From positions 4,806 to 68,805 of the forward strand of contig JAFGUB010000015.1 in NCBI GenBank assembly GCA_016938735.1: a DNA stretch of 64,000 nt, read 5' to 3'. Below, in pieces: positions 20,634 to 41,094 of this stretch. The translations under genes and the position numbers were made by a program. The first letter of the stretch is position 1, and the number at the start of each line of letters is the position of its first letter. The notes under the pieces are model-generated. The model was not told the DNA's origin. It searched no databases and saw only the letters and a program-made list of their open reading frames with translations. This DNA comes from Campylobacterales bacterium (lineage in GTDB: Bacteria; Campylobacterota; Campylobacteria; Campylobacterales; Sulfurimonadaceae).

Positions 20634-20704
20634 GGGCGCAAGGGTAGCATATCTGCTCTAAAAACAATCGCTATAATGACGCCCACATTTTTGAAAGGAG
20701 CAAG

Positions 20705-22247: not shown

Positions 22248-22310
22248 TGCTGCCTATTATTTCATCCGCACGCCAAAGCGATCCCTACCGAATCCCCCTA
22301 TAATGAGCTC

Positions 22311-22955: not shown

Positions 22956-22962
22956 TAGGCAC

Positions 22963-24036: not shown

Positions 24037-24037
24037 A

Positions 24038-24193
24038 TCAGTTCCAGATAATCTCTTCGATCACACTGGCCGCCGCCGCGATACACACGTAAGACGCTTC
24101 AAAACTGAGCATCGCTTCGTCACTCTCTTCGAAGTGGTGCAGGTAGTGGTTAAACCCGAACTCTTCAAGTTCAATGATCTCGGATGATTGCAT
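24038..24193 (-). CDS. Small acidic hypothetical protein (51 aa)
   Basis: AGGAGG lies 6 nt upstream of the internal ATG (MQSSEIIELEEFGF...). The longer track ORF to 24286 lacks an RBS. Confidence 0.25.
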   Translation of the reverse strand: MQSSEIIELEEFGFNHYLHHFEESDEAMLSFEASYVCIAAAASVIEEIIWN

Positions 24194-24345
24194 GGGATGC
24201 CTCCTAAAATAAGATAACCTCCTTAGAGCATTTCTTGTTCGCGCTTTTTTGCCCTGCAAACGGTAGCTTTTTGCATTTTGCGACAATTTTGTCGCTATAG
24301 GCTTACATGTAGAACACTATTTGCAATCAACCGCCTGAAATGCAA

Positions 24346-24403
24346 TCGTCGCCGCTTTTGGGTATGATATGCCAATTTATCCTATCTAAAGAGACGACGT
24401 GCC
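24346..24403 (+). promoter_or_regulatory. nuoA promoter/leader module (copy A of a duplicated ~80-bp element)
   Basis: TCGTCGCCGCTTTTGGGTATGATA contains a TATGAT -10-like box at 24363-24368. AAAGAGACGACGTGCC contains an RBS-like AAAGAGA plus the nuoA GTG at 24399. It is repeated at 38887-38944. Confidence 0.4.
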
Positions 24404-24758
24404 TTCGAACCTCCTGCTCGCCTCCGCCATCATTGCACTGCTGGTGATCGCCCTGCCGATTCTGTTTCACCTCACGCGCTACCTCGGCGCGCGTGAGGAC
24501 AACACCCGCAAAAACGAACCCTACGAGAGCGGCGTGCGCCTCACCCACCGCGACGCGTATGACAGCTTCAACATCCGTTTTTACACCGTAGGGATCATCT
24601 TTTTGCTTTTTGACGTGGAGGTGCTCTTTATGTTTCCGTGGGCGCTGAACCTGCGCGAGCTGGGGCTTTTTGCGATGATGGAGATGTTTGTCTTTATGGC
24701 TCTGCTCATTGCGGGGCTGATCTATGTCTATAAATCAAAGGTGCTCCAATGGACGTAA
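24399..24758 (+). CDS. nuoA: NADH-quinone oxidoreductase subunit A
   Basis: 119 aa from a GTG, with 3 TM helices and the NEPYESG block. Confidence 0.9.
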
Positions 24759-25279
24759 GTAACCATCTTTTAGGGGATGCCATCATCACCACACGCCTTG
24801 AGGCGGTGATCGACTGGGGACGTCAAAGCTCGCTTTGGCCGATGGTCTTTGACACGGCGTGCTGCGCCATCGAGTTTATGGCGGCGGCGGCGAGTCGCTA
24901 CGACGTTTCGCGTTTTGGGGCGGAGGTGCTGCGCTTCTCACCCCGCCAGGCCGATCTGCTGCTGGTTGCGGGCACCATCAGCTACAAGCAAGCCCCTATT
25001 TTGAAGATGATCTATGATCAGATGCCCCAGCCCAAATGGGTGATCGCTATGGGCGCGTGCGCTTCTAGCGGCGGCTTTTATGATAACTACACCACGCTTC
25101 AAGGCATTGACGAGATCGTCCCCGTGGATGTTTATATCGCAGGTTGTCCGCCGCGCCCCGAAGCGGTGCTCGATGCCATCGTGAAGATTCAGGAGAGTTT
25201 GTGGAAAGAGAGAGCGTGCGAAGAGCGCCACGCGGGGTTCAAGGGGCGGTTTGATGATGAGGCGCTAACTCAGCTCTAA
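24749..25279 (+). CDS. nuoB: NADH-quinone oxidoreductase subunit B
   Basis: 176 aa. Cluster N2 ligand blocks are [14 protein letters not shown] and GCPPRPE. It overlaps nuoA by 10 nt. Confidence 0.95.
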
Positions 25280-28200
25280 GGCGATCATCTCGGCCTGTTT
25301 GAGCACCGTTTCGGTCGCCAGTGCTTGCATGTCGGGCGGATAGCCGAACTGACGCAGCACCCTTTTGACGGCGATTTTGAGTTTTGCCCGTACGCTCTCT
25401 TTGATCGTCCAGTCGATGCTGGCATTTTCGCGCACCTTTTGGGTGAGCACCACGGCCAGCTCGCGCAGCACCTCTTTGCTCATCAGCTCTTTTGCACTCT
25501 CATTGTTTGCCACTGCCGTGTAAAAAGCGTACTCAAAATCCGTAAGGCCCAACTCACGCGGCTCTTGATCCATAGCCTGAATCTCTTTGCCGAGGTGGAT
25601 CAGCTCATCGATCACTTCCACCGCCGTGATGATTTTGTTGTGGTATCTTTTGATCGAATCTTCCAGCATCTGCATCAGCGATTTGCTTTGCACCAGATTG
25701 GTTTTTGATCTGGTTTTGATCTCGTCGCCCAGCAGTTTTTTGAGCACCTCAAGCGCGATATTTTTATGCTTCATATTTTTGACTTCCAGCAAAAACTCCT
25801 CTGAAAGTATCGAGATATCGGGCTTTTTGATCCCGCTTGCGTCAAAAATATCGATGACCTGCTCGGTGATGAGCGCTTTATCGATCACCTGACGAATCGT
25901 TGTCTCAATCTCTTCATCGCTTCGATCACCTGAGGGCTCAAACTTCACAAGACGCGCCTTGACGGCCTGAAAAAAGGCCACCTCGTCTTTGGCATCCATC
26001 GCCTGATCGTGCGGAATGGCGATGGCAAAGGCGCTTGAGAGCGCGTTTACCTCTTTGATGTACCTTTTTTTGCCCTCTTCGAGCCCTAAAATATGCTCTT
26101 CGGCTTCTAGTATCAGAGATAACTTTCCTCTTGTATCTTGCTCAAAGTAGTGCTCATACGCAAACCCGTGATACATCTGCGCAACGATTTCAAGTTTTTC
26201 CAGCATCAGCGCCACGGCCTTCTCCTGCGCCAGTGCGGGATCACCCCTGCCGCCGCTGTCGCTGTAAAACGAGAGCGCCGTTTTAAGATCGCTTGCAATG
26301 CCCAGATAGTCCACCACCAGCCCGCCCGGCTTGTCGCCATGCACCCGATTGACCCGCGCGATGGCCTGCATGAGGTTGTGCCCGCGCATGGGCTTGTCGA
26401 TGTAGAGCGTGTGCATTGAGGGCGCGTCAAAGCCCGTGAGCCACATATCGCGCACGATCACAAGGCGCAGCGGGTCATGATCGTCTTTCATGCGGCTCGC
26501 CAGGGCGCGTCTTTGCTCTTTGGTGGTGTGGTGTTTGGCCAGCGCCGCACCATCGGCACTGCTTGAGGTCATGATCACCTTGATGACCCCCTGACTCAAA
26601 TCATCGCTATGCCACGCAGGGCGCAGCGCGACAATCTCATCATACAGCGCAACGGCGATGCGGCGGCTCATGGAGACGATCATCCCCTTGCCCGCAAAGA
26701 CCTCCTGACGCAGTTCAAAGTGCGCGACGATATCGGCGGCGACCTCCTTGATGCGGTTGGCACTCCGATGAGGGCTTCTAGGCGCGTCCATTTCGCTTTA
26801 GCCTTCTGGCTCTCGTCTAGCTCCGATAGCTCCTCATCAAGCGCATGTACCAGCTCCTTGCCTTCCGCACTGAGGTTGATCTTTGCCAATCGGCTCTCGT
26901 AGTAGATCTTGACCGTTGCGCCGTCTTCGACCGCTTGGGCGATGTCGTAGATGTCCACATAATCCCCAAAGACCGCAGGCGTGTTGACGTCGCTGCTCTC
27001 AATCGGCGTGCCCGTAAACCCCAGATAGGTAGCATTGGGCAGGGCGTCGCGCAGATATTTGGCAAACCCGTAGGTGATCTCGCCCGTGTTTTTGTCTATT
27101 TTGGCGCGAAATCCGTACTGCGTGCGGTGGGCTTCATCGGCGATCACCACGATGTTGCGCCGATTTGAGAGCCGCTCATAGACGTTGCCCTCTTCAGGGG
27201 CGAACTTTTGAATGGTAGTGAAGATTACGCCGCCGCTTGCGACGCCCAGCTTCTCTTTGAGTTCGCTTCGCGTCTCGATCTGCACGGGTTCTTGTCTGAG
27301 CAGATTGGCGCAGCTTGCGAAGGTCTCAAAAAGCTGATCGTCGAGATCGTTTCTGTCGGTGATGACCAGCACGGTGGGGTTATCCAGCGCCAGAACGATT
27401 TTGCCCGTATAAAAGAGCATCGAAAGCGATTTGCCGCTCCCTTGCGTGTGCCATACGACCCCGCCTTTTTGATCTCCGCCTTCGCCGGCGGCTTTGAGCG
27501 TTCTCTCTACCGCTTTGTTGACGGCGTAGTATTGGTGATAGGCGGCGAGTTTTTTGACCGTCTCGATGGTGACGATGCCGTTTACATCCTCTTTTTTTGA
27601 TTGCTCAAAGACGATAAAACTACGCACCAGATCGAGCAGCACATGGGGCTGGAGCATCCCATTGATCAGGGTCTCTAGCTGCGGCGTCAGTCTGGAAACT
27701 TCGCTCACGCCGTCGCTGCTCTTCCACGCCATGTAGCGGCTAAGCCCCGCGCTGATTGTTCCCGCTTTGGCCTCGCAGCCGTCGCTGATGACACAAAAAG
27801 CGTTGTAGGTAAAGAGTGAGGGAATGAGCGATTTGTAGGTGCCGATCTGCTGGTGCGCGGAGGCGATGGTGGCGTTTTCGCCGGCGGCGTTTTTGAGCTC
27901 CATCACCACCAGCGGCAGACCGTTGACAAAAAGGATGATGTCGGGGCGTTTTTGATGGCCGTTTTCAATCATCGTGAATTGATTGACAACGACAAAATCA
28001 TTGCTATTCACATCGTCAAAATCTACCAGATGCACGATCTCGCCGCGCGTGATCCCCTCGCGCTGCACATCGACCTTGACCCCCTCCACCAAGAGCTTGT
28101 GAAAGGTCTCGTTGTCGCGCAGCAGTTCGCTTGATTTGATGCGCTCAAGTTGCTTGATGGCATCTTGCAGAGCGCTTACATGTAAGGAGGGGTTGATTTT

Positions 28201-28344
28201 TTCCAACGCGCCTAGCAGCCTCTCTTTGAGCAGAACCTCTTCATAGTTTCGCTCAAGATCGGGAGCGTACATGTAAGCGTAACCAAGCTGCTCAAAAAGC
28301 TCGATTGCGTAGAGTTCTATCTCATTTTCGGTGATTTTAGTCAT
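25265..28344 (-). pseudogene. hsdR: Type I restriction enzyme R subunit, split by a frameshift near 26760-26770
   Basis: The N-terminal ORF (26680..28359; likely start MTKITENEIE at 28344) has the DEAH box IADEAHRTQYG. The C-terminal ORF (25265..26791) has helicase motif [10 protein letters not shown]. The frames join as ...TRLEALIG / [13 protein letters not shown] with a 1-nt offset. Confidence 0.85.
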
Positions 28345-29288
28345 TTGTTCACTTCCCAATATCCGGATTTCAGGCTCCCGACTCTCTTGATAGCGCCTTC
28401 GTCTTTGAGCTTTTTGATCACTTTTTTGACCCCTGACTCGCTCATGGAGAGTTTCCCCATGAGCTCATTGATGGTAATGCGGCTGTTGTCTTTCATCAGT
28501 GCCAAAACTTTTTGATCACTTTTATAGTTACTTTTCTGGTCACTTTTGAGCGTATTGGCGATAGACTCCAAAATCATCTCAAGCATAAACTCGATAAACG
28601 GCGTGCTCTCTCCAAGAGCCGTGGACTCTTCTATGGCTTTATAGTACGCTTCTTGATGCTCCCTTACGATGCTTTCGGTCGGTAAAAGTGCAAAAATCGG
28701 ATTGAAGCTATGTAAAATCACACTTTGCCAAAGTCGCCCGATTCGACCGTTGCCGTCACCAAACGGATGAATAAACTCAAACTCATAGTGAAAGATGCAC
28801 GATTTCAAAAGCATATGCTCATCACTCGCTTTGAGCCATGCAAAAAGATCATCCATCAAATCATTTATCCTATTTGGCTGCGGGGCAATATGCGCTCCGA
28901 CGGATACATTGACGCTTCTAAACGTTCCTGCCGTCGTGAGTATCTCGCCCATCAAGATTTTATGTGCAAGCAACAGATCATTTAAGTCATCATACCTATA
29001 CGCTTCGAGTTTATCATAGGCTTTTATTGCGCCGTTGACTTCGGCAAGCTCTTTGAGTGTTCCTAAAACTCTTTTGCCATCCAAAATAGCGGTAATTTTT
29101 TCCTCACCCAGAAAATTACCCTCTATCTCCAAAGTACCCGCTAATGTTTTGATGCGGTTCTTTTTTCGTAGCATCGGGCTTACTTTTGTAGCGCCGCCAA
29201 CTTGAAGCTTGGTAAGTTCTTCACTGATTTGAGTAGAGAGTTTTAATATTTTTGAGGTTATTTTGTAGGGTGGGGTGTAGTTATTCAT
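28341..29288 (-). CDS. Fic family protein with C-terminal winged-helix domain
   Basis: 315 aa with Fic motif HPFGDGNGRIGR. The C-terminal block NSRITINELMGKLSMSESGVKKVIKKLKDEG is MarR-like. Its stop overlaps the hsdR ATG (ATGA). Confidence 0.85.
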   Translation of the reverse strand: MNNYTPPYKITSKILKLSTQISEELTKLQVGGATKVSPMLRKKNRIKTLAGTLEIEGNFLGEEKITAILDGKRVLGTLKELAEVNGAIKAYDKLEAYRYDDLNDLLLAHKILMGEILTTAGTFRSVNVSVGAHIAPQPNRINDLMDDLFAWLKASDEHMLLKSCIFHYEFEFIHPFGDGNGRIGRLWQSVILHSFNPIFALLPTESIVREHQEAYYKAIEESTALGESTPFIEFMLEMILESIANTLKSDQKSNYKSDQKVLALMKDNSRITINELMGKLSMSESGVKKVIKKLKDEGAIKRVGSLKSGYWEVNK

Positions 29289-30163
29289 TTTAGCCTCCCC
29301 AAAACGTCCAAAGCTCCCATCTCAAAGCGTGAAAACGCAAACCACTTTTTACCCAAGTCTTTCAAGCTTGCTCCGATATGGTAAATCTCTTGTTGGTCTA
29401 TGATCAAAAACCTATCATGAGCTTTTTTAAACTCTATGAGTTCTAGGTTTTGGTATTGCGCGCAGTACTTATGATAGTCAAGACGGAGCTGTTTTGAGAT
29501 GGTTTGCGTGTAGATTTTTATCTTTACATGTAAGTATTTGCTAAAGAGGGTAAAAACGGTGTCGTCTATGTAGTTGTCGATGAGCACCACTTCGTTTTTG
29601 GCACCCCCTAACAGCTCATTGACAAAAGCATACGCATCGTAAATCTGCCCGTCGTAGAAGATTCCATGTTTTGGTCGTATTGAGCTGTTTTCAAGGCCAT
29701 TTGAGATGTTTGCTACTTGTGATTTGAGTAGCGATACATCATTTTCTAGCTCTTTAAACCGTTCATGAGTGATTTTTTCGGAGTTGATGACATAGCCGTT
29801 TTGTACATAACTTGCGAGTACTGATGTTGCCCATTTTCTAAACTTTGTGGCGGTTATGGAATTAACTCTATAGCCGATAGAGATAATCATATCGAGGTTG
29901 TAATGCTCCAAGTTTCGCTCAACCATCCTATTACCTTCATTTTGAACTGTCAAGAAAAACTTGATAGTTGCGTCTTTGTCTAACTCATTGTCTTTGTATA
30001 TACGATTGACATGAAGGCTAATGTTTTGTTTTGTCACACCAAACAACTCGCCAAGTTGTTTTTGCGTCAGCCAAATAGTATTGTGGTTCACCGAAACATT
30101 CAGCTCTTGCTCACCGTCATTGTATATGACTACATTATGGCTTGGTATGGTTAGCTCATTCAT
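29285..30163 (-). CDS. RhuM-family protein
   Basis: 292 aa. LTQKQLGELFGVTKQNISLHVNRIY...ISIGYRVNSITATKFRKWAT is the RhuM signature region. It overlaps the Fic gene by 4 nt. Confidence 0.85.
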   Translation of the reverse strand: MNELTIPSHNVVIYNDGEQELNVSVNHNTIWLTQKQLGELFGVTKQNISLHVNRIYKDNELDKDATIKFFLTVQNEGNRMVERNLEHYNLDMIISIGYRVNSITATKFRKWATSVLASYVQNGYVINSEKITHERFKELENDVSLLKSQVANISNGLENSSIRPKHGIFYDGQIYDAYAFVNELLGGAKNEVVLIDNYIDDTVFTLFSKYLHVKIKIYTQTISKQLRLDYHKYCAQYQNLELIEFKKAHDRFLIIDQQEIYHIGASLKDLGKKWFAFSRFEMGALDVLGRLK

Positions 30164-30205
30164 CGCTTGCCTTTGGTTTGGTCATTTTAGGCTACCTTGC
30201 TTTGC

Positions 30206-30237
30206 TTACATGTAACGAAAGAAAAGCTTACATGTAA
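30206..30237. repeat. Two TTACATGTAA copies 22 bp apart (CTTACATGTAAC ... CTTACATGTAAT)
   Basis: Exact 10-mers at 30206-30215 and 30228-30237. They lie in the gap between rhuM and the AT-rich block. Confidence 0.95.
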
Positions 30238-30268
30238 TGCGGGGTTTGAATGATTGGTGGTGGTCATA

Positions 30269-30802
30269 TTATTTCCTGACTCCGTTTTCCTTGTCATCAA
30301 ATAAGCTTCTTTGATGTTCTTCTACCCATTTTTGATATTTTCGTTTTTTTCCAGCTTCTCGAAGTTTCAGTTTCCCGAGCTCTAGTTCTTGTGTTCCAAA
30401 TACTTGTAGCAGTCTATAACTTCTACTTTTCTCATCGCCAAATTCATCAAAAGTAATTTTTATTTCGAGATGGCAATTTATCAATGAACCATTAGAAAAT
30501 TTATGCTTTCCTTCAATAACCTCTTGTTTGAATTTTGAATCCGCCATACTAAAATCAATTTTTTCATTTTTGTATCTACCTCTCCAGTTATATTTCCCCT
30601 CTTTCAAAACTGGTGAAATTATTTCTATCATGGCATCGTCATCTTCTGACATAGTTGTGTCATCATGCAAAATAAAGCTTTTAAAATCTTTTCTCTCAAC
30701 TATATATTCATCTGCATCATCCTCTAAACTTCTATACCCTATCTTTTCTACTTTTTCATAAGCATCAATTTTTTTGTAAAAGTTTGAAATATATTTTTGC
30801 AC
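30269..30802 (-). CDS. Hypothetical protein (177 aa), very low GC
   Basis: Clean ORF in the AT-rich block downstream of the RloC-like gene. Lys/Glu-rich. No family recognised. Confidence 0.5.
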   Translation of the reverse strand: MQKYISNFYKKIDAYEKVEKIGYRSLEDDADEYIVERKDFKSFILHDDTTMSEDDDAMIEIISPVLKEGKYNWRGRYKNEKIDFSMADSKFKQEVIEGKHKFSNGSLINCHLEIKITFDEFGDEKSRSYRLLQVFGTQELELGKLKLREAGKKRKYQKWVEEHQRSLFDDKENGVRK

Positions 30803-30835
30803 GAGTTTATCATTGAGCTTTTTCTCTATTTGTTC

Positions 30836-31192
30836 TTATAGCTCTAAAGTTTTTTGTTGATTGTCTAACTCTAAATTTTGAAGTGTTGCTTCTTTGATTT
30901 TTTTATCTAAGGCTTCTGCTTGAGTATTTCTAGTAGCATAGTGAGTGATAATATCATTCAAAGCAGGTGATAAATAATGCAATGTAGGCAATACAATAGC
31001 CAATATTTCAATTAATCCGCCCTCTTGATAAGCTTCCGTTTCGATTTTTAACTCACTGTCTAAAAGCTCACCTATCCTTTTGACTGCTTCAAGAAAATCT
31101 TTTTCAGCCTTATTTCTCACAAAAGCATTCATAGCATGTGAGTTATCTTTTAGGTAATAATGAAGTTCAAATTTTTGAGTTAAGTTATTCAT
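30836..31192 (-). CDS. Hypothetical helical protein (118 aa), very low GC
   Basis: The start MNNLTQ at 31192 overlaps the RloC-like stop by 8 nt (ATGAATAA). The C-terminus is predicted helical/coiled. No family recognised. Confidence 0.5.
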   Translation of the reverse strand: MNNLTQKFELHYYLKDNSHAMNAFVRNKAEKDFLEAVKRIGELLDSELKIETEAYQEGGLIEILAIVLPTLHYLSPALNDIITHYATRNTQAEALDKKIKEATLQNLELDNQQKTLEL

Positions 31193-33380
31193 TAATAACT
31201 CCAATTTCAATATTCATCATTTTATTAAAATGTTTGATATTGCCTGATTCTTCAAAAATTTGTTTAAATGCTTCTTTAAATAAACTTACATCTATTTCTT
31301 TAACATCTGATATATTTATTTGGTCAGAATGAGACTCTCTATCAATGTATCTTAAAAAAGCACCGTATTTTATAGAATCAAGTTTATTTACTGATTCTTT
31401 CATCTTTTCATTGTCAATAAATCCAAAAAAATTCTCAAGTATATTTCGCATTGCATTTGCCAAAATATTGTCATGAGCGTTTCCATTTTCATGGTCTTTG
31501 AGTATTTTCCAATAAGCCTGATAATCATTTTGTATTTCATCTTGTAGCATTTCTAAAATTAAAGAAGATTTATCATTGCCTCTAACTATTCTAAAAAGCT
31601 TTTTATCCTTTTTATTGTGTATCTTACAAAGCTCATGAAAAAAATACATGCTATGAGTTAGTACAAAAACTTGTAAATAATTTTGACTTTCAAAAAATTC
31701 TTTTTTTGTAAGTTGTGCAACATTAAAAATATAATTATGCGATAAGCTTGATATTGGATCATCTATTACAACAATTTTATTTTTAATCTCTTCTGTTTCG
31801 CTTTCTTTTCCTTTGCAAAGTTCCACAAAGTAAAGAAAGCTTATTATCATTTTTTCACCTTCGCTTAACGATTTAAATTCTGGTTTACTTTCATTCTCCC
31901 TTACAATTCTGTAAAACTTATCTTCAAAAGGCTTTATCTCAAAACCATGCAACCCAAGCAAGGCTAATTGATAGTTAATTAATTCTATAACTTTTTCAAT
32001 ATTGATTGTTTTATCTTGATTTTCTTTGATAACATCTCTTTGAGCTTTTATATCATCTTTGATTTTTTGAAGTGCTAAATTTACCTTTGCTTCTTCTTTT
32101 TCTAAATCTTTTAAATCTTTTTCATATGACGAAATATGTACATCGTACTCCCATCTCATTATTTCCCAAAATTCTTTCTTTATAATCTCTTTAACATTTT
32201 TTTTATTTTTTATTTTTTCATTATGCTGCGTCATTTCTTGATTGATTTTTTCTACAAGTTCATTAAAGTTTTTCAATGCTTGACTAGAACCTTGAAGAGT
32301 CACTTTATTGCTTGGAAGTTTTATTTTATTGTCGATTGCAGTTATATTTTGAGATAAAACTGTAAGCAGTTTTGTATGTAAGCTTTCAAGTTCTATTTTT
32401 ACAGCATTTACATAATCATTTACTAAAAATGAGTCTATAGATGGAATATTATTTTTGATTGTCTCATATTTAGATTTTATTCCTTTCAATAAATTAATCT
32501 TATCCTCGTAAGTTTTATCAAAGTAGTTTTTTATCTCATCAGCTAAATTTTTTGTAACAGTTTCTTGTTGACAAAATGGGCAACTTGTGGCTTCATTTAT
32601 CTCATCTGGTAAATAGCCTAGACCCAGTTTTACCCAATCAGAATTTTGAAATTTTTCTATTAAACTTGCAACTGTACTATCTTTATTTCCTACAATAACT
32701 TCATCAAAAATACTGTTGTTTTCAAGTTCAATTACGCCACTTAAAACAATTTTTTGGAGAGGGTCTAAACTAATAGCATCATCACCTTCAATTTTTGAAA
32801 TCTCTTTTTTTAAATCATCTGTTGTTTTTGTAGGTTTAGTCAATGGCTTTACTAATGATTTAATATGATTAAATAGTGCATCTTTACTGCCTTTAACACC
32901 TTCTAAACAATAATCTAAAATTCTATCTCCACCGCTAAAGGTTGTTTTTATATTCCATATTTTTTCAGTCGCTTCTGACAATTTCTTTTTTTTCTTGCCA
33001 TTAGCTCCGTTTATTTCGTCTAGTTCTATTTTTTTTGCTTTTTCTTGAGTTTCTAATTTGTCAATTTCAGCTTTTGCATTTTTTACATTTTCTTCTGCTG
33101 TAACATTTGGCTCTGATATTGTAAAAACACCTTTTAAATCTTCTTTTTCATAAAAGTTTTCATTAATAAATTCTTGATTGTACACCAGTATTTTTGCTGT
33201 TTCTCCACCAGAAATTGAACAATCATTAAATTTACTATTGTTTTTATTTTTTAAAAAGTTTGATAAAGTTGTTTTTCCTGTTCCGTTTAGTCCATAAACA
33301 AGGTTTATTTTTTTATCTGTATTGAGTGTTCTTTCGCTTCTATAACTAGCGACATTTTTTAGTTTTATTAAAGTAATCAT
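31185..33380 (-). CDS. RloC/PrrC-like ABC-type ATPase (AAA_13 architecture), putative anticodon nuclease
   Basis: 731 aa with Walker A GLNGTGKTT and a long Lys/Glu-rich coiled-coil insert carrying CPFCQQ (zinc-hook-like CxxC). ABC signature SLSEGEK, Walker B IVVIDDPISSLS and H-loop VLTHS follow. The C-terminal R-x3-E (RNILENF) plus ESHSD resemble the PrrC nuclease triad. The gene is embedded in an hsd locus. Confidence 0.7.
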   Translation of the reverse strand: MITLIKLKNVASYRSERTLNTDKKINLVYGLNGTGKTTLSNFLKNKNNSKFNDCSISGGETAKILVYNQEFINENFYEKEDLKGVFTISEPNVTAEENVKNAKAEIDKLETQEKAKKIELDEINGANGKKKKKLSEATEKIWNIKTTFSGGDRILDYCLEGVKGSKDALFNHIKSLVKPLTKPTKTTDDLKKEISKIEGDDAISLDPLQKIVLSGVIELENNSIFDEVIVGNKDSTVASLIEKFQNSDWVKLGLGYLPDEINEATSCPFCQQETVTKNLADEIKNYFDKTYEDKINLLKGIKSKYETIKNNIPSIDSFLVNDYVNAVKIELESLHTKLLTVLSQNITAIDNKIKLPSNKVTLQGSSQALKNFNELVEKINQEMTQHNEKIKNKKNVKEIIKKEFWEIMRWEYDVHISSYEKDLKDLEKEEAKVNLALQKIKDDIKAQRDVIKENQDKTINIEKVIELINYQLALLGLHGFEIKPFEDKFYRIVRENESKPEFKSLSEGEKMIISFLYFVELCKGKESETEEIKNKIVVIDDPISSLSHNYIFNVAQLTKKEFFESQNYLQVFVLTHSMYFFHELCKIHNKKDKKLFRIVRGNDKSSLILEMLQDEIQNDYQAYWKILKDHENGNAHDNILANAMRNILENFFGFIDNEKMKESVNKLDSIKYGAFLRYIDRESHSDQINISDVKEIDVSLFKEAFKQIFEESGNIKHFNKMMNIEIGVINE

Positions 33381-34552
33381 ATCTCCACCCTTGCTTCCCC
33401 ACTCAACAGCTTTGGCAAGAGTGTATCTCGCAAGTTTTCAAGGGTTTGGATTTGTTTCGTATTGCTTTCTATTTTTGTGAAATATGGTTTCATCTCTTCT
33501 TCAAATTCCTTTACTGTTTTTTCATTCGGTAGAGTGATATTGTGTTCTTGGAATGTCTTTGTAGTAATAGTATCAAAAACACTGCCGTATGCAGCGGCTT
33601 GGAGCTCTTCCACTGAGTGTGAAATCAAAAGATATGTGAAAAAATAGCAGTCCTTAAATTTCGGCAAAACACCATAATTTGACTGGCTAAACGCCATAGG
33701 CTCCGCGAGTAAGCAATATTTCCCCACTGTTCCTCTAGCACTAATCACTGTGGCATATTTTGGTAAAAGCTTTGCCGAACTTTTTTCTAATCCCGTCTGT
33801 GTAATTGTTTTTTCTGTTTTGTGAATAAAACCTTTGTGATGCGAAGATATATCTCCTCCTGCCAACCATCCAATGCTCCCATCCCAATATTCCGCAACCG
33901 TAGTTTTTGGTGTACCCCCACCAACAAGAATAATGCTATCAAAAAGGCTTTGATCCTCCCACTCCTCTTTTGCTTCTTCGATAAACCATTGTCTAAAAAG
34001 CGTTTGGGCGAGGGATTCTAGGGTGTGGTTTTGGCGATGGAGAAGGTCTATCTTATCATCGAGGCTACTTAATACTTCTGCTATTGCTTTTTGTTCTTCA
34101 AGAGGTGGAAGGGAAATATCAATTTCATCAAATGTTGTTCTTGTTATGGTGTCAAATACTCCACCGTGAGATATTTGTATTAATTGATTTACTGTATCTT
34201 TTAAAAGGTAAAAAATATAATCATTTGTAGATTCATTTTCTTTTGCTCTAACTCCGTAACAAGATTGATTAAAAGTCATAGGTTTATCAAGCATTGCTAA
34301 AGCTCCAACAGTTCCACGAGCTGAAATGATTATGTCATTTTCTTGAAGTAGTTTTGTACTACTGTTTTTAAGTCCTTCTTCTGTTATAGTTTTTTCAGTT
34401 TTTGAAACATATTTTTTGCCAGTGTTAAAATCTACAACTGAAAGCCAAGGGATATCTCCATTCCAATATTCAGAAATAGCAGTTTTAGGAGTTCCACCTC
34501 CAATAATTTCTATTACCTCCCCCAACTTACACTCTCTCCAACTACTCATCAC
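33377..34552 (-). CDS. hsdS: Type I restriction-modification specificity subunit
   Basis: 391 aa. It has two target-recognition halves, each with GGGTPKT...ISARGTVG blocks, separated by conserved helical spacers. Confidence 0.85.
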   Translation of the reverse strand: MMSSWRECKLGEVIEIIGGGTPKTAISEYWNGDIPWLSVVDFNTGKKYVSKTEKTITEEGLKNSSTKLLQENDIIISARGTVGALAMLDKPMTFNQSCYGVRAKENESTNDYIFYLLKDTVNQLIQISHGGVFDTITRTTFDEIDISLPPLEEQKAIAEVLSSLDDKIDLLHRQNHTLESLAQTLFRQWFIEEAKEEWEDQSLFDSIILVGGGTPKTTVAEYWDGSIGWLAGGDISSHHKGFIHKTEKTITQTGLEKSSAKLLPKYATVISARGTVGKYCLLAEPMAFSQSNYGVLPKFKDCYFFTYLLISHSVEELQAAAYGSVFDTITTKTFQEHNITLPNEKTVKEFEEEMKPYFTKIESNTKQIQTLENLRDTLLPKLLSGEARVEI

Positions 34553-35234
34553 TCACCGCCTTTCTCACCCGCTCCATCAGCCCGAAGCTCTGCTCTTCTA
34601 GTAGTGAAAATGCAAACCACTTTTTGCCAAGGTCTTTGAGGGTTGATTCGTCGATATAGTTGTCTATAAGAACGATTGAACTTTTGGCTTTTTTGACAAG
34701 CTCACTCACGAGTGCATACGCATCAAAAATCTGCCCGTCGAAAAAGACGCCCTGTTTGGGGGTGGTGGATCTATTTTCAAGTGCATTTAGCACCGATTCT
34801 AGCTTTTGATTGGTCTGTTTTTGGTCTAGTTCAAGTTTTTCTACTCTTTGAAAAAGTGAAGCGTTCTGGAGGAGGTACTTGCGCATCTTGACGAAACTGT
34901 TGATGATATTGATGCTGGTTTGGATTGCCGTATCGCTTCGCAAGACTGCCGAGAGCATAGATACGCCTTGTTCGGTGAAGACATAAGGCAAAGCTGACGA
35001 ATGCTTGAGAGGTTGCAACCGGTCGCAATTTGCGACCAGTTCATTTTTTTCACTTTCATTTAACTGAAATCTAAACTCCTCGGGGAATCTCTCAATATTT
35101 CTTTTGACCTGTTCACCAAGTCTTTTTGGCTCCACACCGTACAGCTCCGCCAAATCTCTATCGATCATTACTTGCACACCGCGAATCGTAAAGATTTTGT
35201 GTTCGATGTTTTGCTGTATGCTCATTTCACTCAT
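34542..35234 (-). CDS. ORF6N (KilA-N-like) domain protein with truncated RhuM-type C-terminal module
   Basis: From MSEMSIQQNIEHKIFTIRGVQVMIDRDLAELYGVEPKRLGEQVKRN (ORF6N signature). The C-terminus matches the RhuM paralog tail but carries an internal deletion. Confidence 0.7.
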   Translation of the reverse strand: MSEMSIQQNIEHKIFTIRGVQVMIDRDLAELYGVEPKRLGEQVKRNIERFPEEFRFQLNESEKNELVANCDRLQPLKHSSALPYVFTEQGVSMLSAVLRSDTAIQTSINIINSFVKMRKYLLQNASLFQRVEKLELDQKQTNQKLESVLNALENRSTTPKQGVFFDGQIFDAYALVSELVKKAKSSIVLIDNYIDESTLKDLGKKWFAFSLLEEQSFGLMERVRKAVSDE

Positions 35235-36306
35235 CACCCACCCCCTCAAAATCATCTTCTAATTCCGCTTCTATTTGTTCCATGCTAGGAAGTGAGGATT
35301 GATACTCTTTGGGCAAGATCTCCATGAGTTCATATTCACTGACGCCTAAAGGCTTGTTGACATCTTTGAGCGCATACTCTACCACTACATTGTTTTTTGA
35401 TTTACAGATAAGTATGCCTATGGTCGGGTTGTCATTTTGATCTTTTAGCTCACCGTCGATTGCGCTCGTATAAAAGCTCAATTTTCCGGCAAACTCAAGC
35501 TTAAACTCACTCACTTTTAGCTCTACCACTACATAACATTTGAGCTTGATGTGATAAAAAAGCAAATCGATCCTAAACTCATCACCGCCAACGACAAGCT
35601 TATATTGTCTGCCGACAAAGGCAAATCCACTTCCAAGCTCTAGTAAAAACTTTGTAATGTTCTCTGTCAAAGCGTTTTCCAGCTCTCTCTCTTGATAGCC
35701 TTGCGTGAGGGTCAAGAAATCAAAGTTATAGGGATCTTTTGTGATCTCTTTTGCCAAGTCCGATTGAAGCGGTGGAAGTGTAGCCTCAAAGTTTGTGATA
35801 GCTTTGCCCTCTCTGGCGTAAAGATTTGTCTCTATTTGATGAATGAGCACATTTCTGCTGATACCGTTTTTGATGGTGTTTTGCACATAATAGAGAGCTT
35901 CTTGGGTGCTTTTGCACTTTTGGATGATGGCGATATTGTGCCCCCAAGGGATTTGTAAAACTTGCGAAACAACTTGTTTCGTATTTGTAACTTCCATTTG
36001 CGAAACAACTTGTTTCCAAAATAGATACCACTTTCTGATCAACTCTAAATTTCTTTTTGAAAACCCTTTTATATCTGGAAACTCTGCACTTAAGTCCTTG
36101 CTTAGTTGTTGCAAAAATCCGCTTCCCCAAGTGCTACTTTTTTGCTTTTCTACTATTTTACTTCCAAGATTCCAATAAAACTCCAGTAAAGCGCTATTTA
36201 TCTGTATGGAGGCTTTTATTTGCGAGCTTTGAAACCTTTGTTTTATCTCATTTAGCCACTCTTTATATTCTGTATTCAAAGAATTTTGAAGTTGTGTATT
36301 ACTCAT
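35227..36306 (-). CDS. YhcG/DUF1016-family PD-(D/E)XK nuclease-like protein
   Basis: From MSNTQLQ at 36306. The C-terminal block FRIDLLFYHIKLKCYVVVELKV has the D...ExK pattern. Confidence 0.75.
   Translation of the reverse strand: MSNTQLQNSLNTEYKEWLNEIKQRFQSSQIKASIQINSALLEFYWNLGSKIVEKQKSSTWGSGFLQQLSKDLSAEFPDIKGFSKRNLELIRKWYLFWKQVVSQMEVTNTKQVVSQVLQIPWGHNIAIIQKCKSTQEALYYVQNTIKNGISRNVLIHQIETNLYAREGKAITNFEATLPPLQSDLAKEITKDPYNFDFLTLTQGYQERELENALTENITKFLLELGSGFAFVGRQYKLVVGGDEFRIDLLFYHIKLKCYVVVELKVSEFKLEFAGKLSFYTSAIDGELKDQNDNPTIGILICKSKNNVVVEYALKDVNKPLGVSEYELMEILPKEYQSSLPSMEQIEAELEDDFEGVGDE
35962..36016. repeat. In-frame 36-bp tandem duplication carrying two GAAACAA-C-TTGTTTC hairpin-capable units
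   Basis: TTGCGAAACAACTTGTTTC occurs at 35962-35980 and again at 35998-36016. In the protein it encodes QVVSQ...QVVSQ. Confidence 0.8.
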
Positions 36307-37300
36307 CACCCACCGCCTCAAGGAGTCTTTGAAACTCTTCTTTGTTGGGCAGTACGGTGAGATATTTGCTGGCAAATATTTGGTTGTTGTCTCGTGGAAG
36401 GGTCATCTCTACAAGGGCTTTACTTTTGTCTTTGCACAAGATAATGCCCACCGTCGGGGCTTCGTCCTCTTGTTTTTCGACGCGGTCAAAGTAGTTGACA
36501 TACATCATCATCTGCCCGATGTCTTGATGTTTGAGTTCACCGATTTTGAGGTCTATGAGGACAAAACAATGCAAAAGGCGATTGTAAAATACCAAATCCA
36601 CCGCAAAGTGCTTTTCATCGATAGTAAGGCGTTTTTGTCTGGCGACAAAAGTAAAGCCTTTGCCAAGCTCCAGCAAAAATGCCTCTAGCTTATCGATGAG
36701 CTTTTGTTCTAAGTCGCTCTCAGAGTAGCTTGATAGCACGGGAAGTCCCACAAATTCGAGTATGTACGGGTCTTTTATGAGGTCTTGCACGGTTTCGATG
36801 ATATGCCCTTTTTGCGAAAGCTCTTTGACTTTTGTTTTGTCGATACTCAGGCTTAGCCGCTCATACAGCCCTGTGTCAAACTGCCTTTTGAGCTCTTTGA
36901 GCGTCCAGCCATTTTGTGCAGATTCTACCTCATAAAAATTTCGCTCATCTTCGCCGGTTATGCGAGACAAAAAGATGTAGTGGGAGTAGCTGAGGCTAAA
37001 TTGGTGAGACGCCGTCTCACTTTTTGAATAAGCCAAATAAAACCGTCTCATATTTTTGAGGTTATCTATTGAAAATCCACTGCCAAACTCCCTTGTAAGC
37101 TCATGTGAGAGATTTTTGATCAGCCCTTTGCCATACTCCGCCCTAGCTTCTCCGCCCTGCTCCTCTTCAACAATGCGCCGTCCTATCTCCCAGTAGGTTT
37201 GGGTCATGGTGGTATTGATGGTTTGGTAGATGCTGTTTCTGGCTTTTTGGAGAAGCTCTTTGATATCCGATACAAAATGGGTGTTTGAAAGATTACTCAT
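36299..37300 (-). CDS. YhcG/DUF1016-family PD-(D/E)XK nuclease-like protein
   Basis: 333 aa with N-terminal [30 protein letters not shown]...[14 protein letters not shown] and C-terminal [26 protein letters not shown]. Confidence 0.8.
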
Positions 37301-38813
37301 CCCCCACCGCCAAATTCACCTTCGCCAAATTTGCCAAAATACGCTCATTGAGCGCTTGTTCTTCCCTCATCTGCTCTTGAAGCGTTACATGTAAAGACTC
37401 AAACCGCTCTTTGAAATCAAACTCATCTTCCACATCTTCAAGCCCCACGTAGCGCCCGGGCGTGAGTACATAGTTAAGCTCTCGCACCTCTTGAAGGCTT
37501 GCGCTTTTGCAAAAGCCTTTGATGTCCTCATAGCGCACACTTTTGACCTTCCACTCATGATAGGTCTGCGCGATTTTGTCGGTATCTTTGGGGCTTAGCT
37601 CTTTAGTGCGGCGGTTGATGAGATGGCCCAGATTGCGCGCATCGATGAAGAGTATATCTTGCGTGGTGCGTCCGCGTTTCATAAACCAGAGCGAAGCGGG
37701 AATCTGGGTGTTGAGAAAGAGCTTTGCGGGCAGGTTCACGATGCAGTCAACAAGATTGGCCTCAATCAGCGCCTTGCGGATCTCCCCTTCGCCGCTGGTG
37801 TTGCTCGTGAGGCTCCCTTTTGCCAGAACAAACCCCGCCGTGCCTGTGGGTGCGAGGTGATACAAAAAGTGCTGTATCCACGCATAGTTGGCGTTGCCCG
37901 CAGGCGGTGCGCCGTATTGCCATCGGCCATCACTGCGCAGCAGCTCGCCGCTCCAGTCAGAGACGTTAAAGGGCGGATTGGCGATGATGAAGTCCGCTTT
38001 GAGGTCTTTGTGGGCATCGCTTAAAAATGAGCCTTCGTTGTTCCATTTAACCTGGCTAGAGTCGATGCCGCGAATGGCAAGGTTCATGCGGGCCAGCCGC
38101 CATGTGGTCTGGTTGGACTCTTGGCCGTAGATGGAGATGTCGTTGATGCGCCCTTGATGCTCCAGCACAAACTTTTCGCTCTGCACAAACATCCCGCCGC
38201 TGCCGCAACAGGGGTCAAACACGCGCCCCTTGTAAGGTTCTAGCATCTTCACCAGCAGTTCTACAACGCTTTTGGGCGTGTAAAACTGACCGCCCTGTTT
38301 GCCCTCGGCCAGCGCAAATTCACCCAGAAAATACTCAAACACATGCCCCAGCACATCAGCGCTGCGCGCTTTGGCATCACCCAGCGCGATATTGCCGATC
38401 AGATCGATCAGCCCGCCAAGCGCCTTGGCATCAAGATTGTCGCGGGCGTAGACCTTGGGCAGCACCCCTTTGAGCGTCGCGTTTTCACGCTCGATGGCGT
38501 CCATCGCTTCATCAACGAGCTTGCCGATGTGGGGGAGCTTGGCGCTGCCTTGCAGGGTGCTCCAGCGCGCGTTTTGCGGCACAAAAAAGACGTTTTCGGC
38601 GGCGTATTCGTCTTTGTCTTCGGGGTCGGCACCCTGATCAATCTGTGAGCGCAGCGTTACATGTAAAGCTTCAAAACTATCAGAGATGTATTTAAGAAAA
38701 ACCAGCCCCAGCACGACATGCTTGTATTCGGCGGCGTCGATGTTTTTGCGCAGCTTGTCGGCGGCTTTCCAAAGGGCGGTTTCAAGGGATTCTAGCGAAG
38801 CGGATTTGGCCAT
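37293..38813 (-). CDS. hsdM: Type I restriction-modification methyltransferase subunit
   Basis: From [22 protein letters not shown] (ATG at 38813). SAM motif DPCCGSGGM and catalytic NPPFN are present. The track ORF extension to 39017 crosses the promoter repeat and the nuoC start and is rejected. Confidence 0.9.
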
Positions 38814-38886
38814 AAGAGATGTTTCCGTGTGTGTTTTTGAAGCATAGATTGTAGCCAAAAGTTGATCCCCACACCTTGAAATCCAT

Positions 38887-38944
38887 TCGTCGCGGCTTTT
38901 GGGTATGATAGTGGCAATTTTTACCGACAAAGAGACGACGTGCC
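38887..38944 (+). promoter_or_regulatory. Copy B of the nuoA promoter/leader module, placed in front of nuoC
   Basis: TCGTCGCGGCTTTTGGGTATGATA has 1 mismatch to copy A, with TATGAT at 38904-38909. AAAGAGACGACGTGCC is exact. The GTG at 38940 opens an 11-codon remnant, [11 protein letters not shown], whose TGA overlaps the nuoC ATG (ATGA). Confidence 0.45.
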
Positions 38945-38971
38945 CCAAAATCTCCCGATACGGATTGATGG

Positions 38972-39208
38972 ATGAGTGAAGTACCCTACAGCGATCTTTT
39001 TGCCCACGCACAGTCACTCAAAAGCGAAGGCTACACCCTCCTACTCGACATCGTAGGCATCGATTACCTCTACCTGCCGCGCAAAGAAGCCAAGCGTTTT
39101 GGGGTGATCTACCATCTGCGCCATGGGGATTTCGACCGTGTGGTTTCTTTACATGTAAGCGTGAACGAAGATGAGCCGATAAGTAGCCTGTCCCCTTTAT
39201 TTAGATAA
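38972..39208 (+). pseudogene. nuoC: nuoC 5' fragment, terminated by a TAA created inside a tandem duplication
   Basis: The 78 codons encode a NuoC-like N-terminus (LLLDIVGIDYL...YHL). The stop at 39206-39208 lies in the duplicated copy of GATAAGTAGCC... Confidence 0.75.
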
Positions 39209-39241
39209 GTAGCCTGTCCCCTTTATTTGTCCCCTTTATTT
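39178..39241 (+). repeat. Nested tandem duplication (25 nt + A + 25 nt + 13 nt) inside nuoC
   Basis: GATAAGTAGCCTGTCCCCTTTATTT occurs at 39178-39202 and 39204-39228, followed by GTCCCCTTTATTT at 39229-39241. The net insertion is 39 nt, which is in frame. Confidence 0.9.
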
Positions 39242-40624
39242 GAGAGTGCGGATTGGTTGGAGCGGGAGGTGTTTGATCAGTTTGGGCTGCGTTTTAGCGG
39301 CCATCCCAACCTCAAACGTGTGCTCAACCATGAGGAGTTTATCGGCCATCCGCTGCGCAAAGATTATGCCATTACCAAAGGCCAATACTGCACCCAGACT
39401 CAGGATTTGATGGATGAGATGGCGCCGCTGCTTACATGTAAGCATCTGGATATGGAGCGTGACAACCTTATGCTGCTCAACCTCGGCCCCTCACACCCCG
39501 CCAGCCACGGCACGCTGCGCACCCTTGTGGCGCTTGACGGCGAAGAGATCAAGGCGGGGGTGAGCGAGATCGGCTATCTGCACCGGGGCTTTGAGAAGTC
39601 GTGCGAAAACCACACCTATAACCAGATCGTCCCCTACACCGACCGGCTCAACTACTGCTCGGCGCTCATGAACAACATCGGTTTTTGCAAGGCGGTAGAG
39701 GAGATGATGGGCATCAAGCTGCCGGATCGTGGGATCTTTATCCGTGTGATCCTAAGTGAGCTTTCGCGCATTATCGACCACCTCGTCTGCCTCGCGGCGG
39801 GGCTGCTGGATATGGGGGCGCAGACCAACTACTGGTACCTCTTCAACCCGCGCGGGCTGGCCTATGACTTTCTCAGCCGCCTTACGGGGGCGCGGCTCAC
39901 CAACTCTTTTATGCGCATCGGCGGCATGGCGCACGATCTGCACGCGGGGTGGGAAGCGGAGCTAGAAAGCGTGCTGCGCTCGGTCGAGAGTGGCGTGGAT
40001 GAGAGCCTGCGCATGAGTGAGCACAACCGCATTTTTATCGACCGAACCCAAAATGTCTCGTGTGTGAGTGGGGAGCGGGCAGTGAACATGGGCTGGAGCG
40101 GCCCCAATCTACGTGCGTGCGGCGTCGCGTACGATCTACGTTTTGCCGCGCCTTATGACTACTACGACACCTTTGATTTTTCGATGGTCGTAGGCTCTTC
40201 GGGGGACACCTATGATCGGCTGATGGTGCGCTTTGAAGAGATCAAAGAGAGCCTCAGCATCATTCGTCAGGCCATAAAACGCATCCCTCAAGGAGCGGTC
40301 AGCGTTGCCGATCACGCCGTGACGCTGCCTAGCAAAAGCGCCGTTTATGGCACGATTGAAGGGGCGATGAATCAGTTTAAACTTATCTTCGAGGGGGTCA
40401 AAGTGCCCAAAGGAACCCACTACGGCGCCACCGAAGCGGCCAACGGCGAGCTGGGATTTACCATCATCAGTGATGGCAGCGGCACGCCCTACCGCGTGAA
40501 AGTCCGTGCGCCCAGTTTCATCCACATGGCAAGCTACCCCAAGATCATCGAAGGAAGCCAAATCGGCGATGCTATTTTGACACTTGGAAGCCTCAATATC
40601 ATTGCCGGGGAGATGGATCGATAA
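39227..40624 (+). CDS. nuoD: NuoC C-terminal part fused to NuoD (NuoCD), downstream of the duplication
   Basis: The 465-aa ORF uses TTG in the track. [18 protein letters not shown] is the NuoC core. After a linker, [14 protein letters not shown] onward is full-length NuoD. Confidence 0.85.
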
Positions 40625-41094
40625 TGTTTACCTTTACGCCCCAAAACCTCCAAAAGATCGAAGCGCTAAAAAGCCGCTACCCCTCCCCCAACGCCCTAGC
40701 CCTGCCGCTGCTGTGGATGGTGCAGGAGCAAGAGGGCACTATCAGCCTAGAGGCGATGGAGGCCGCCGCCCCCTTTTGCGACCTACCCCCCATCGAACTC
40801 TACCGCATCGCCACCTTTTACACGATGTTCAAGCTCGCCCCCACAGGCCGCCACCACATACAGCTGTGCAAAACCCTCTCGTGTGCTCTGTGCGGCAAAG
40901 CGGAGATTTTGGCGCATCTGCAAGAGCGCCTCGGCATCGGTGTGGGCGAGATGACTCCCGATGGGCGCTTTAGCCTGGAGCAGGTGGAGTGCTTGGGCTC
41001 CTGCGGCACCGCGCCCGTGATGCAGATCAACGACGTCAATTTTGAAAACCTCACCCCCAAAAAGATTGATGAGATTTTAAAGGCACTGTCATGA
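40624..41094 (+). CDS. nuoE: NADH-quinone oxidoreductase subunit E
   Basis: 156 aa. The 2Fe-2S cysteines lie in CKTLSCALCG...CLGSCGTAPV. Confidence 0.9.
   Translation: MFTFTPQNLQKIEALKSRYPSPNALALPLLWMVQEQEGTISLEAMEAAAPFCDLPPIELYRIATFYTMFKLAPTGRHHIQLCKTLSCALCGKAEILAHLQERLGIGVGEMTPDGRFSLEQVECLGSCGTAPVMQINDVNFENLTPKKIDEILKALS

Follow-up and report, generated by a model that had tools for sequence, protein, structure and literature searches.

A type I restriction-modification cassette within the nuo operon of a Sulfuricurvum-like bacterium, and a second copy of the nuoA upstream element before nuoC

The 64-kb stretch of DNA considered here, referred to throughout as the window, comes from a Sulfuricurvum-like member of the Campylobacterota with a GC content of about 57%, and carries a set of nuo genes for respiratory complex I that is interrupted between nuoB and nuoC. 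The interruption is a defence-laden type I restriction-modification (R-M) cassette inserted into the respiratory operon as an insert of 13,617 bp (about 13.6 kb), all genes of which (25265-38813) lie on the minus strand. What is new at this locus is that the duplicated target takes in the promoter, the ribosome-binding site (RBS) and the gene ends of the operon; no new defence or mobility system is involved. The parts of the nuo cluster are listed below, L002 being the closest relative found.

24399-24758, plus strand: nuoA (Pfam Oxidored_q4, E = 9.8e-30)
24749-25279, plus strand: nuoB (Pfam Oxidored_q6)
25247-25257, plus strand: left copy of the target end, CGGTTTGATGA, in the nuoB 3' end; in the alignment with L002 the empty-site homology ends here
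38972-40624, plus strand: nuoCD fusion, interrupted
40624-51040, plus strand: nuoE, F, G (short, 421 aa), H, I, J, K, L, M and N

The interrupted nuo cluster and its empty site

A sequence-only reading of this DNA had described nuoA-nuoB (24399-25279) and nuoC-N (38972-51040) as split by minus-strand R-M and defence genes, and both the gene order and the coordinates agree with the present analysis. The 15-nt overlap that it reported between the 3' ends of hsdR and nuoB, which meet tail to tail at 25265-25279, is likewise correct. The island supplies the last six codons of nuoB (EALTQL) and the stop, which are read antisense to the 3' end of hsdR: in L002 the protein ends in ...GRFDD*, whereas in the window it is six residues longer and has a different ending. 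The absence of an integrase, a transposase, a tRNA gene and terminal inverted repeats was upheld by domain, tRNA and repeat searches, as no integrase or transposase domain was found in any open reading frame (ORF) of the island with Pfam or PADLOC, no tRNA was found in the window, and the repeat search of the window gave no terminal inverted repeat at the island ends; what had been overlooked at the flanks are direct repeats of target sequence. The attributes of an integrase-type genomic island (an integrase, a tRNA or other attachment (att) site, and att direct repeats) are not present, and comparison of the island with plasmid and phage collections returned no near match.

A NuoB-based scan, taking one genome per species, yielded 80 loci, the first 40 of which were tabulated for the nuoB-nuoC junction. 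L002, a Sulfuricurvum sp. metagenome-assembled genome (MAG) from a sulfidic cave, has a NuoB 99% identical to that of the window and an empty site at which the nuoB stop overlaps the nuoC start (ATGACTGA; shown as GATGACTGA). Homology between the window and L002 extends on the left side up to 25257 (…CGGTTTGATGA) and on the right side starts at about 38961 (CGGATTGATGGATGAGTGAAG…). Since the site is empty in L002 and since nuoC or nuoCD lies within about 350 nt of nuoB in 38 of the 40 tabulated loci, L002 included, the split is derived by insertion; the synteny comparison that had been proposed as a check thus rules out an ancestral two-unit operon, with an intact junction in L002 and in 37 more relatives whose flanks were long enough. 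The two genomes in which the genes are not adjacent are both more distant: in a Sulfurovum MAG (L004, 1-2945) the genes after nuoB are a comF-like one and trpB, and in a Campylobacterota MAG (L036, 1-3745) nuoA-nuoB is followed by an opposite-strand CHASE2 cyclase gene. Because nuoB precedes unrelated genes in both, the boundary between nuoB and nuoC has been broken more than once in the phylum. The synonymous divergence (dS) between the window and L002 is 0.27-0.99, which makes them related species rather than strains, and the ratio of nonsynonymous to synonymous divergence (dN/dS) does not exceed 0.13. A sliding identity profile against L002 is a mosaic with dips near both junctions, and no donor tract was defined.

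The second nuoA upstream element in front of nuoC

The question of how nuoC-N is expressed behind the island had been raised from the sequence alone, and it finds a candidate answer in the sequence itself, where the promoter, leader and start of nuoA occur a second time directly upstream of nuoC. The elements concerned are the following.

24334-24398, plus strand: P, the native nuoA upstream element, with a 34-nt block at 24336-24369, a -10-like TTTGGGTATGAT at 24357-24368, and the RBS and start AAAGAGACGACGTGCC at 24388-24403
38875-38939, plus strand: P', the diverged copy, with the 34-nt block at 38877-38910, TTTGGGTATGAT at 38898-38909, and the RBS and start at 38929-38944
38940-38975, plus strand: leader mini-ORF of 11 codons, made up of about seven nuoA codons and the last four nuoB codons, with a stop
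38848-38859, minus strand: -10-like TTTGGCTACAAT upstream of hsdM, back to back with P'

The two blocks emerged from the repeat search as a 34-nt direct repeat with three mismatches (24336-24369 and 38877-38910, family D15), and alignment identifies 38875-38957 as a copy of 24334-24416. P' contains a conserved block, TGAAAT..TCGTCG.GGCTTTTGGGTATGATA, followed by a diverged spacer of equal length, and the 16-mer that holds the RBS and the GTG start of nuoA, AAAGAGACGACGTGCC, is identical at P and P' in 16 of 16 positions. Both the 34-mer (at up to three mismatches) and the 16-mer occur in the 64-kb window only at these two sites, with 0 occurrences expected. P' matches only the nuoA upstream region of L002 and has no match beside the other hsd cassettes examined. 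Metagenome scans with a strict pattern of the promoter block gave no match, and a relaxed pattern was discarded, the 28 loci that it returned being chance matches without nuo or hsd genes.

The mini-ORF begins with GTG and fuses codons 1 to about 7 of nuoA in frame to the last four codons of nuoB and a stop. Its nuoB-end remnant, CGGATTGATGGATGA, matches CGGTTTGATGACTGA of L002 at 12 of 15 positions with the frame and the stop kept (CGG ATT GAT GGA TGA against CGG TTT GAT GAC TGA), and its TGA overlaps the ATG of nuoC as ATGA. An 11-nt direct repeat stands at both boundaries of the insert (CGGTTTGATGA and CGGATTGATGG, 9 of 11 positions identical). The left copy of the target spans 24334-25257, and the right copy (38875-38975) consists of about 82 nt of P and the nuoA 5' end plus 15 nt of the nuoB 3' end; positions 1945-2872 of L002 align to both.

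These remnants bear on the possibility of a secondary compensation, in which a polar insertion would have come first and a later duplication or gene conversion would have placed the nuoA promoter and leader before nuoC, to be retained by selection. Such a sequence of events predicts the same end state, and selection for complex I expression is plausible in view of the low dN/dS of nuoCD, but two independent rearrangements would be required at the same few bases, and a nuoB-end remnant in frame behind nuoA codons fits a deletion within a full duplicate and not the transfer of a promoter only. Compensation after the fact is considered distinctly improbable.

With regard to the function of the element, homology between the window and L002 upstream of nuoA starts exactly at the P block although the genes further upstream are not syntenic (in the window a GGDEF gene and a small ORF, in L002 a different gene), and in relatives further removed -10-like boxes stand about as far from nuoA. 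The motif TTTGGNTANNAT is present four times in the window against 0.3 expected (at 6095, 24357, 38848 on the minus strand, and 38898), all four copies being correctly oriented just upstream of gene starts, namely those of an ORF at about 6106, nuoA, hsdM and nuoC, and it is a candidate for the extended -10 promoter motif of this organism. With one copy upstream of each, hsdM and nuoC would have divergent, back-to-back promoters about 40 nt apart. A sigma-70 and terminator scan of the window gave counts no higher than those of shuffled sequences and no convincing terminator after nuoB or hsdR, and since an Rfam scan of the window at gathering threshold produced no match, the conserved block is not explained by a known leader RNA or riboswitch. 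From these features we infer that P' is active as a promoter.

P, P' and the corresponding element of L002 (L002-P) are roughly equidistant, with about 71-80% identity when compared without gaps and about 80-83% by a hand count that allows one indel in the spacer. Among the 16 sites at which P and L002-P differ, P' sides with L002 at eight, with P at four and with neither at four, and its 12 private changes make it the longest branch of the three promoter copies. This site pattern indicates that P' is not a recent copy of the present P and that the duplication is old; on the simplest reading it would have taken place soon after the split from the L002 lineage, and P' could conceivably have been imported from a third lineage. 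For the comparison of the window with L002, dN/dS is about 0.06 in nuoCD and about 0.03 in nuoB, at dS 0.5-0.7. The nuoCD value indicates that the downstream nuo genes stayed under purifying selection; it would be unexpected had these genes been silent since the insertion, and it fits an old event.

The branch lengths can also be taken to mean that the promoter was carried in, from a donor in which hsdM was divergent from nuoA and from which a fragment running from hsdR through hsdM and P' to the nuoA start was joined illegitimately at nuoB/nuoC, so that the 11-nt direct repeat (CGGTTTGATGA and CGGATTGATGG) would represent microhomology or a short target duplication. That P' is the longest branch and not closest to the window's own P speaks for such an origin, as do the position of the 9/11 repeat exactly at both boundaries and the drop in identity to L002 near both junctions. 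However, no examined hsd-family locus adjoins nuo, none of the 80 NuoB loci has hsd upstream of nuoA, a coincidence is required by which a cassette with a nuo promoter landed in the same operon, and the site pattern of P' is equally explained by an old duplication in place. A carried-in promoter is regarded as unlikely, while still the most serious of the alternatives.

Cassette content, assembly support and state of the nuo genes

The genes of the cassette, from its left to its right end, are these.

25265-28359, minus strand: hsdR, as ORFs 26680-28359 and 25265-26791 (Pfam HSDR_N, SWI2_SNF2, T1R_D3-like, T1RH-like_C)
28341-29288, minus strand: fic with a helix-turn-helix (HTH) domain, SoFic-like (Pfam Fic, HTH_24; PADLOC SoFic, E = 1e-41)
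29285-30163, minus strand: rhuM (PADLOC PDC-S05; profile matches)
30269-31210, minus strand: PDC-S42 defence-candidate gene, split into an N half (30836-31210) and a C half (30269-30802) (PADLOC)
31185-33380, minus strand: AAA_13 ATPase (PADLOC PDC-S06), RloC/PrrC-like (AAA_13, E = 1e-120; PDC-S06, E = 4e-241; PrrC, E = 2e-17)
33377-34552, minus strand: hsdS (Pfam Methylase_S, two domains; PADLOC Specificity_I)
34542-35255, minus strand: ORF6N-domain gene (PDC-S05; Pfam, PADLOC), with an internal deletion
about 35227-36307 and 36299-37300, minus strand: two yhcG/DUF1016 PD-(D/E)XK genes (PDC-S02; Pfam, PADLOC)
37293-38813, minus strand: hsdM (Pfam HsdM_N, N6_Mtase)

The order of the genes had been read correctly from the sequence; hsdR, taken for a single gene, is in two ORFs through a -1 frameshift, and two ORFs listed as unknown are the halves of one split PDC-S42 gene. 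The hsdR frameshift lies at about 26764, between the helicase domains, where a tblastn alignment with an intact homologue of 1031 aa changes frame. It is a single-base deletion found in the same form in contig L112 of the Logan assembly described below, and phase variation was rejected as its cause because no homopolymer is present at the site. A functional type I R-M system needs intact HsdR, HsdM and HsdS, and here hsdM and hsdS are intact and hsdR is frameshifted; judging from the sequence, restriction is probably off and methylation may persist. Both PDC-S42 ORFs match the profile PDLC05016, at positions 2-123 and 148-319, and the gene is probably a pseudogene.

The AAA_13 match of the ATPase takes in positions 3-713 of 713 and the PrrC match residues 469-720, which identifies the protein as a full-length AAA_13 ATPase with a PrrC-related C-terminal nuclease region embedded in an hsd locus, a candidate anticodon nuclease of the RloC/PrrC type. 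The protein contains CPFC at residue 267, RNILE (R-x3-E) at 645 and RESHSD at 681, which may correspond to the zinc-hook CxxC and the catalytic Arg/Glu/His triad of RloC or PrrC. A C-terminal domain is common to the rhuM and ORF6N genes (repeats D1 and D9; DNA identity 74-81%), and about 55 middle codons are missing from the ORF6N copy. A junction of about 21 nt, reading ...GTGGGTGATGAGT in the coding direction, is repeated where hsdM, the two yhcG genes and the ORF6N gene terminate (34544, 35229, 36301 and 37295); these genes end in ...VGDE* or ...VSDE* and overlap the ATGAGT start of the next; it looks as if cargo cassettes had been stacked behind copies of the hsdM 3' end. The 7-mer GATGAGT, shared by the cassette junctions and the nuoC start, was considered as a mark of recombination and set aside as a coincidence of stop/start overlaps.

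HsdM is 80-86% identical to the HsdM proteins of Sulfurovum, Arcobacteraceae and Francisella. Homologous hsd shells with different cargo occupy unrelated chromosomal contexts and hold, among others, a Hachiman-like HamA with a helicase, GmrSD and a KAP NTPase, a distribution in line with mobility of the cassettes. The closest hsdM match (P0001/L082) was rejected as a guide to the boundaries, since it has only about 70% DNA identity and adjoins dnaN.

Base composition differs along the island: the window flanks have a GC content of about 56-58%, the hsdR/hsdM shell is host-like at 54%, and the core at 30.3-37.3 kb falls to 26-39%. The palindromic 10-mer TTACATGTAA is by far the commonest 10-mer: the 64 kb of the window hold 32 copies where 0.04 would be expected (for example at 2890, 15019, 28176, 30206, 30228, 38657, 39149, 43161 and 63656). 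Of the 48 ACATGT sites, 32 belong to a copy of it; there is a tendency towards the longer form GC-TTACATGTAA-GC, and 25 of the 32 copies lie within long ORFs, in the two frames that avoid a TAA stop. L002 and two Sulfurospirillum loci (L035 and L038) are likewise enriched in it; no enrichment was seen in the loci of the other relatives, and those of Sulfurovum, Sulfurimonas and Desulfobulbaceae lack it. No description of TTACATGTAA as a bacterial repeat was found in the literature searched, and by analogy it resembles a highly iterated palindrome of the kind of cyanobacterial HIP1, or a DNA-uptake sequence. Its island copies lie in hsdR, in rhuM, in an intergenic spacer and in hsdM, and 30238-37384 is free of it. 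The host-like GC content of the shell together with the iterated palindrome of the host suggests a long residence of hsdR and hsdM, and the low-GC core, where the palindrome is missing, looks like a later replacement of cargo; this distribution and the difference in GC content also fit an old event. In the spacer between rhuM and PDC-S42 (30164-30268), which borders the segment of lowest GC content, TTACATGTAA occurs twice at a distance of 22 nt, and this spacer may be a boundary of cargo exchange.

A chimeric assembly at either junction had been named as a reason to doubt the split, and both junctions were found to be 100% identical in Logan contigs of SRR13394436; this run probably represents the reads behind the window, so that the comparison is with an independent assembler and not with an independent sample. 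The contigs concerned are the following.

window 14749-25502: Logan contig L001, from nuoB into hsdR
window 37975-46973: Logan contig L111, from hsdM through P' into nuoC-K
both GC transitions: Logan contigs L112 and L113

A join of nuo contigs to the hsd locus of another organism, or a foreign low-GC core, could be suspected because the sample is a metagenome, because GC content drops from 57% to 26% inside the island, and because the Logan contigs break inside hsdR and hsdM, with no contig obtained as a cross-check of the interior (29371-35023). Against this stand the single, fully identical contigs that span nuoB-hsdR and hsdM-P'-nuoC-K and the two that span the GC transitions, and a nuoB frame that runs into the island and nuo remnants at its right end are not products of a chimeric join; such an artefact is hardly credible. 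Exact-protein look-ups for hsdM, the AAA_13 gene, hsdS and rhuM found none on record.

The start of nuoC at 38972 had been given correctly, while the gene is in fact a nuoCD fusion broken by a 39-nt duplication with an in-frame TAA. The inserted 39 nt (39203-39241) are tandem duplications of 26 nt and 13 nt of ...GATAAGTAGCCTGTCCCCTTTATTT... (region 39179-39245), net in frame yet with a TAA at 39206-39208, and both halves retain the SPLF segment. The lesion is identical in contig L111; it may truly inactivate the gene, reflect a gene fission, or be a variant within the population. All nuo subunits are present and all genes except nuoC are intact; whether the cluster presently provides complex I function is uncertain on this evidence, and the description of the operon as essential-type is unproven here, nuoC currently having an in-frame stop.

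These defects raise the possibility of a decaying remnant, in which the downstream nuo genes and restriction are dead and P' has no present role. Alongside the stop in nuoC, the hsdR frameshift, the split PDC-S42 gene and the internally deleted ORF6N gene are in keeping with decay, and two relatives (L004 and L036) have nuoAB without an adjacent nuoC-N. Nevertheless, the other nuo genes are intact and dN/dS is low, the nuoC lesion is a single net in-frame event that may be recent, a population variant or tolerated, and decay would question the present use of P' without contradicting its origin; this possibility is judged improbable.

The presence of nuoE and nuoF shows that the nuo cluster is not of the Campylobacter/Helicobacter type. 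These two genes, the fused nuoCD and the short nuoG (421 aa) were compared with loci L009-L033. The NuoB of the window is 70-76% identical to that of Desulfobulbaceae and 64-79% identical to that of many Campylobacterota, values that are comparable, and this equal closeness points to a type of cluster that is shared laterally and may be a second complex I.

Proposed course of events and relation to known systems

On balance, we favour as probable an insertion with long target duplication that was independent of a transposase, in which a redundant nuoAB copy was later deleted and two units were left under paralogous promoters. In this scheme, a bare type I R-M operon (hsdM-cargo-hsdS-cargo-hsdR, 13.6 kb, antisense) would have entered a contiguous nuoA-N at the overlap of the nuoB stop and the nuoC start, by the R-M cassette mode of naturally competent bacteria, which is formally equal to a Campbell-type integration of a circle with target homology. 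The segment from the promoter through nuoA and nuoB, about 0.92 kb, would have been duplicated, and an in-frame deletion would later have removed about 0.83 kb from the downstream duplicate, leaving the promoter, the 5' untranslated region, the RBS, the GTG and about seven nuoA codons joined to the last four nuoB codons and the stop. The outcome would be two transcription units, P-nuoAB and P'-miniORF-nuoC...N, with paralogous promoters. The insertion, the empty site, the duplicated promoter and leader, the nuoB-end remnants and the geometry of the mini-ORF are directly visible, whereas a duplication that preceded the deletion and an entry by transformation would be the steps that connect them. 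One duplication and one deletion would explain all three remnants, namely the promoter/leader, the nuoA start and the nuoB end. Because the stop of the mini-ORF overlaps the nuoC ATG, the translational coupling once given by nuoB would be kept, and because P' heads the nuoC-N unit, co-regulation would be preserved without read-through of 13.6 kb of antisense DNA.

Several points weigh against this scheme. On the right side the repeat consists of two pieces (about 82 nt and 15 nt) and shares only about 80% identity with its left counterpart, and since published repeats are contiguous and at least 90% identical, an additional deletion and a long time must be assumed; the 0.92-kb duplication is likewise longer than published examples. 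Neither the NuoB locus scan nor the metagenome promoter-block scans turned up an intermediate that still has all of the second nuoAB copy, or a second genome with the island at nuoB/nuoC. A generic sigma-70 scan flagged neither P nor P', neither of which has a good -35, a weak -35 being usual in epsilon-proteobacteria. Site-specific constraint on P' at positions conserved among orthologues was not significant (Fisher p = 0.5), and the pattern of conserved block and diverged spacer was noticed post hoc and is descriptive only. Finally, the stop in nuoC makes the current function of the downstream unit doubtful, and the interior of the island lacks the Logan cross-check.

The locus displays operon splitting in progress at base-pair resolution, together with a way in which the downstream half may keep its expression, and links two literatures, that on R-M cassette mobility by long target duplication and that on the life-cycle of operons. 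Under the scheme, nuoAB and nuoC-N are predicted to be co-regulated and to be transcribed from two start sites that have their -10 motif in common. A broader idea, which we put forward as quite unlikely, is that long target duplication is a built-in avoidance of polarity for R-M cassettes that settle in essential, tightly coupled operons, the redundant coding sequence being trimmed later. If this were true and general, many pairs of paralogous promoters flanking defence cassettes would have gone unnoticed, and defence islands would regularly create new, still co-regulated transcription units by splitting operons.

In its gene content, the cassette resembles type I hsd loci with cargo, consisting of an hsdM...hsdS...hsdR shell with yhcG/DUF1016, ORF6N/RhuM, Fic and an RloC/PrrC-like ATPase. 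Other examples of type I hsd loci with embedded genes are those with the rlo/mlo genes of C. jejuni, EcoprrI-PrrC and the PADLOC PDC-S candidates, and the content is essentially the same, with the difference that hsdR and one cargo gene are broken here.

In its mode of insertion, the locus is closest to a process described for R-M units of types I-IV, which insert with long, variable target duplications (46-423 bp) and without mobility genes (PMC2853133, after Nobusato et al. 2000 Gene 259:99). In most such cases the host is naturally competent, H. pylori and Campylobacter being among these hosts; the published repeats are contiguous, have at least 90% identity and often span a start or stop codon, so that the target genes survive, and insertion into an operon-like structure has also been described (PMC2853133). 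An island inside a respiratory operon had been called unusual in the sequence-only reading: the insertion is real, while R-M insertion free of mobility genes was already known (PMC2853133). Furuta et al. 2010 called such events from homologues of R and M, an insert of <20 kb without other mobile genes, a repeat of >30 bp and an empty-site alignment (PMC2853133), and R and M genes, an insert below 20 kb without mobility genes, a repeat above 30 bp and an alignment to the empty site are all found here. The locus shares with these insertions an R/M/S unit, the lack of an integrase or transposase, direct repeats, a site at a stop/start, intact target genes and a host clade (epsilon-proteobacteria/Campylobacterota) in which this mode was first seen. 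It differs in that the target would be a whole promoter with the first two genes of an operon, that the downstream copy is cut to a promoter and a mini-ORF, that the repeats are about 80% identical, and that the site is inside a 13-gene respiratory operon.

With regard to the operon life-cycle, among 66 dead operon pairs 11 had their genes still close together and were probably split by insertion (Price, Arkin & Alm 2006, PMC1480536), and of the energy-production operons of E. coli 31 were alive and 0 dead (PMC1480536). The nuoB-nuoC pair resembles operon death by insertion, being adjacent and co-oriented in relatives and here separated by inserted genes while still nearby. In contrast to such dead operons, the downstream nuo half carries a copy of the original promoter, and co-regulation may survive. 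Insertion sequence (IS) elements and islands with outward-facing promoters relieve polarity, and the present case is similar insofar as the downstream genes would be driven from a promoter at the end of the inserted block. Unlike the promoters of IS elements, the one at this locus is a paralogue of the interrupted operon's own and comes with its RBS, its start and a coupling mini-ORF.

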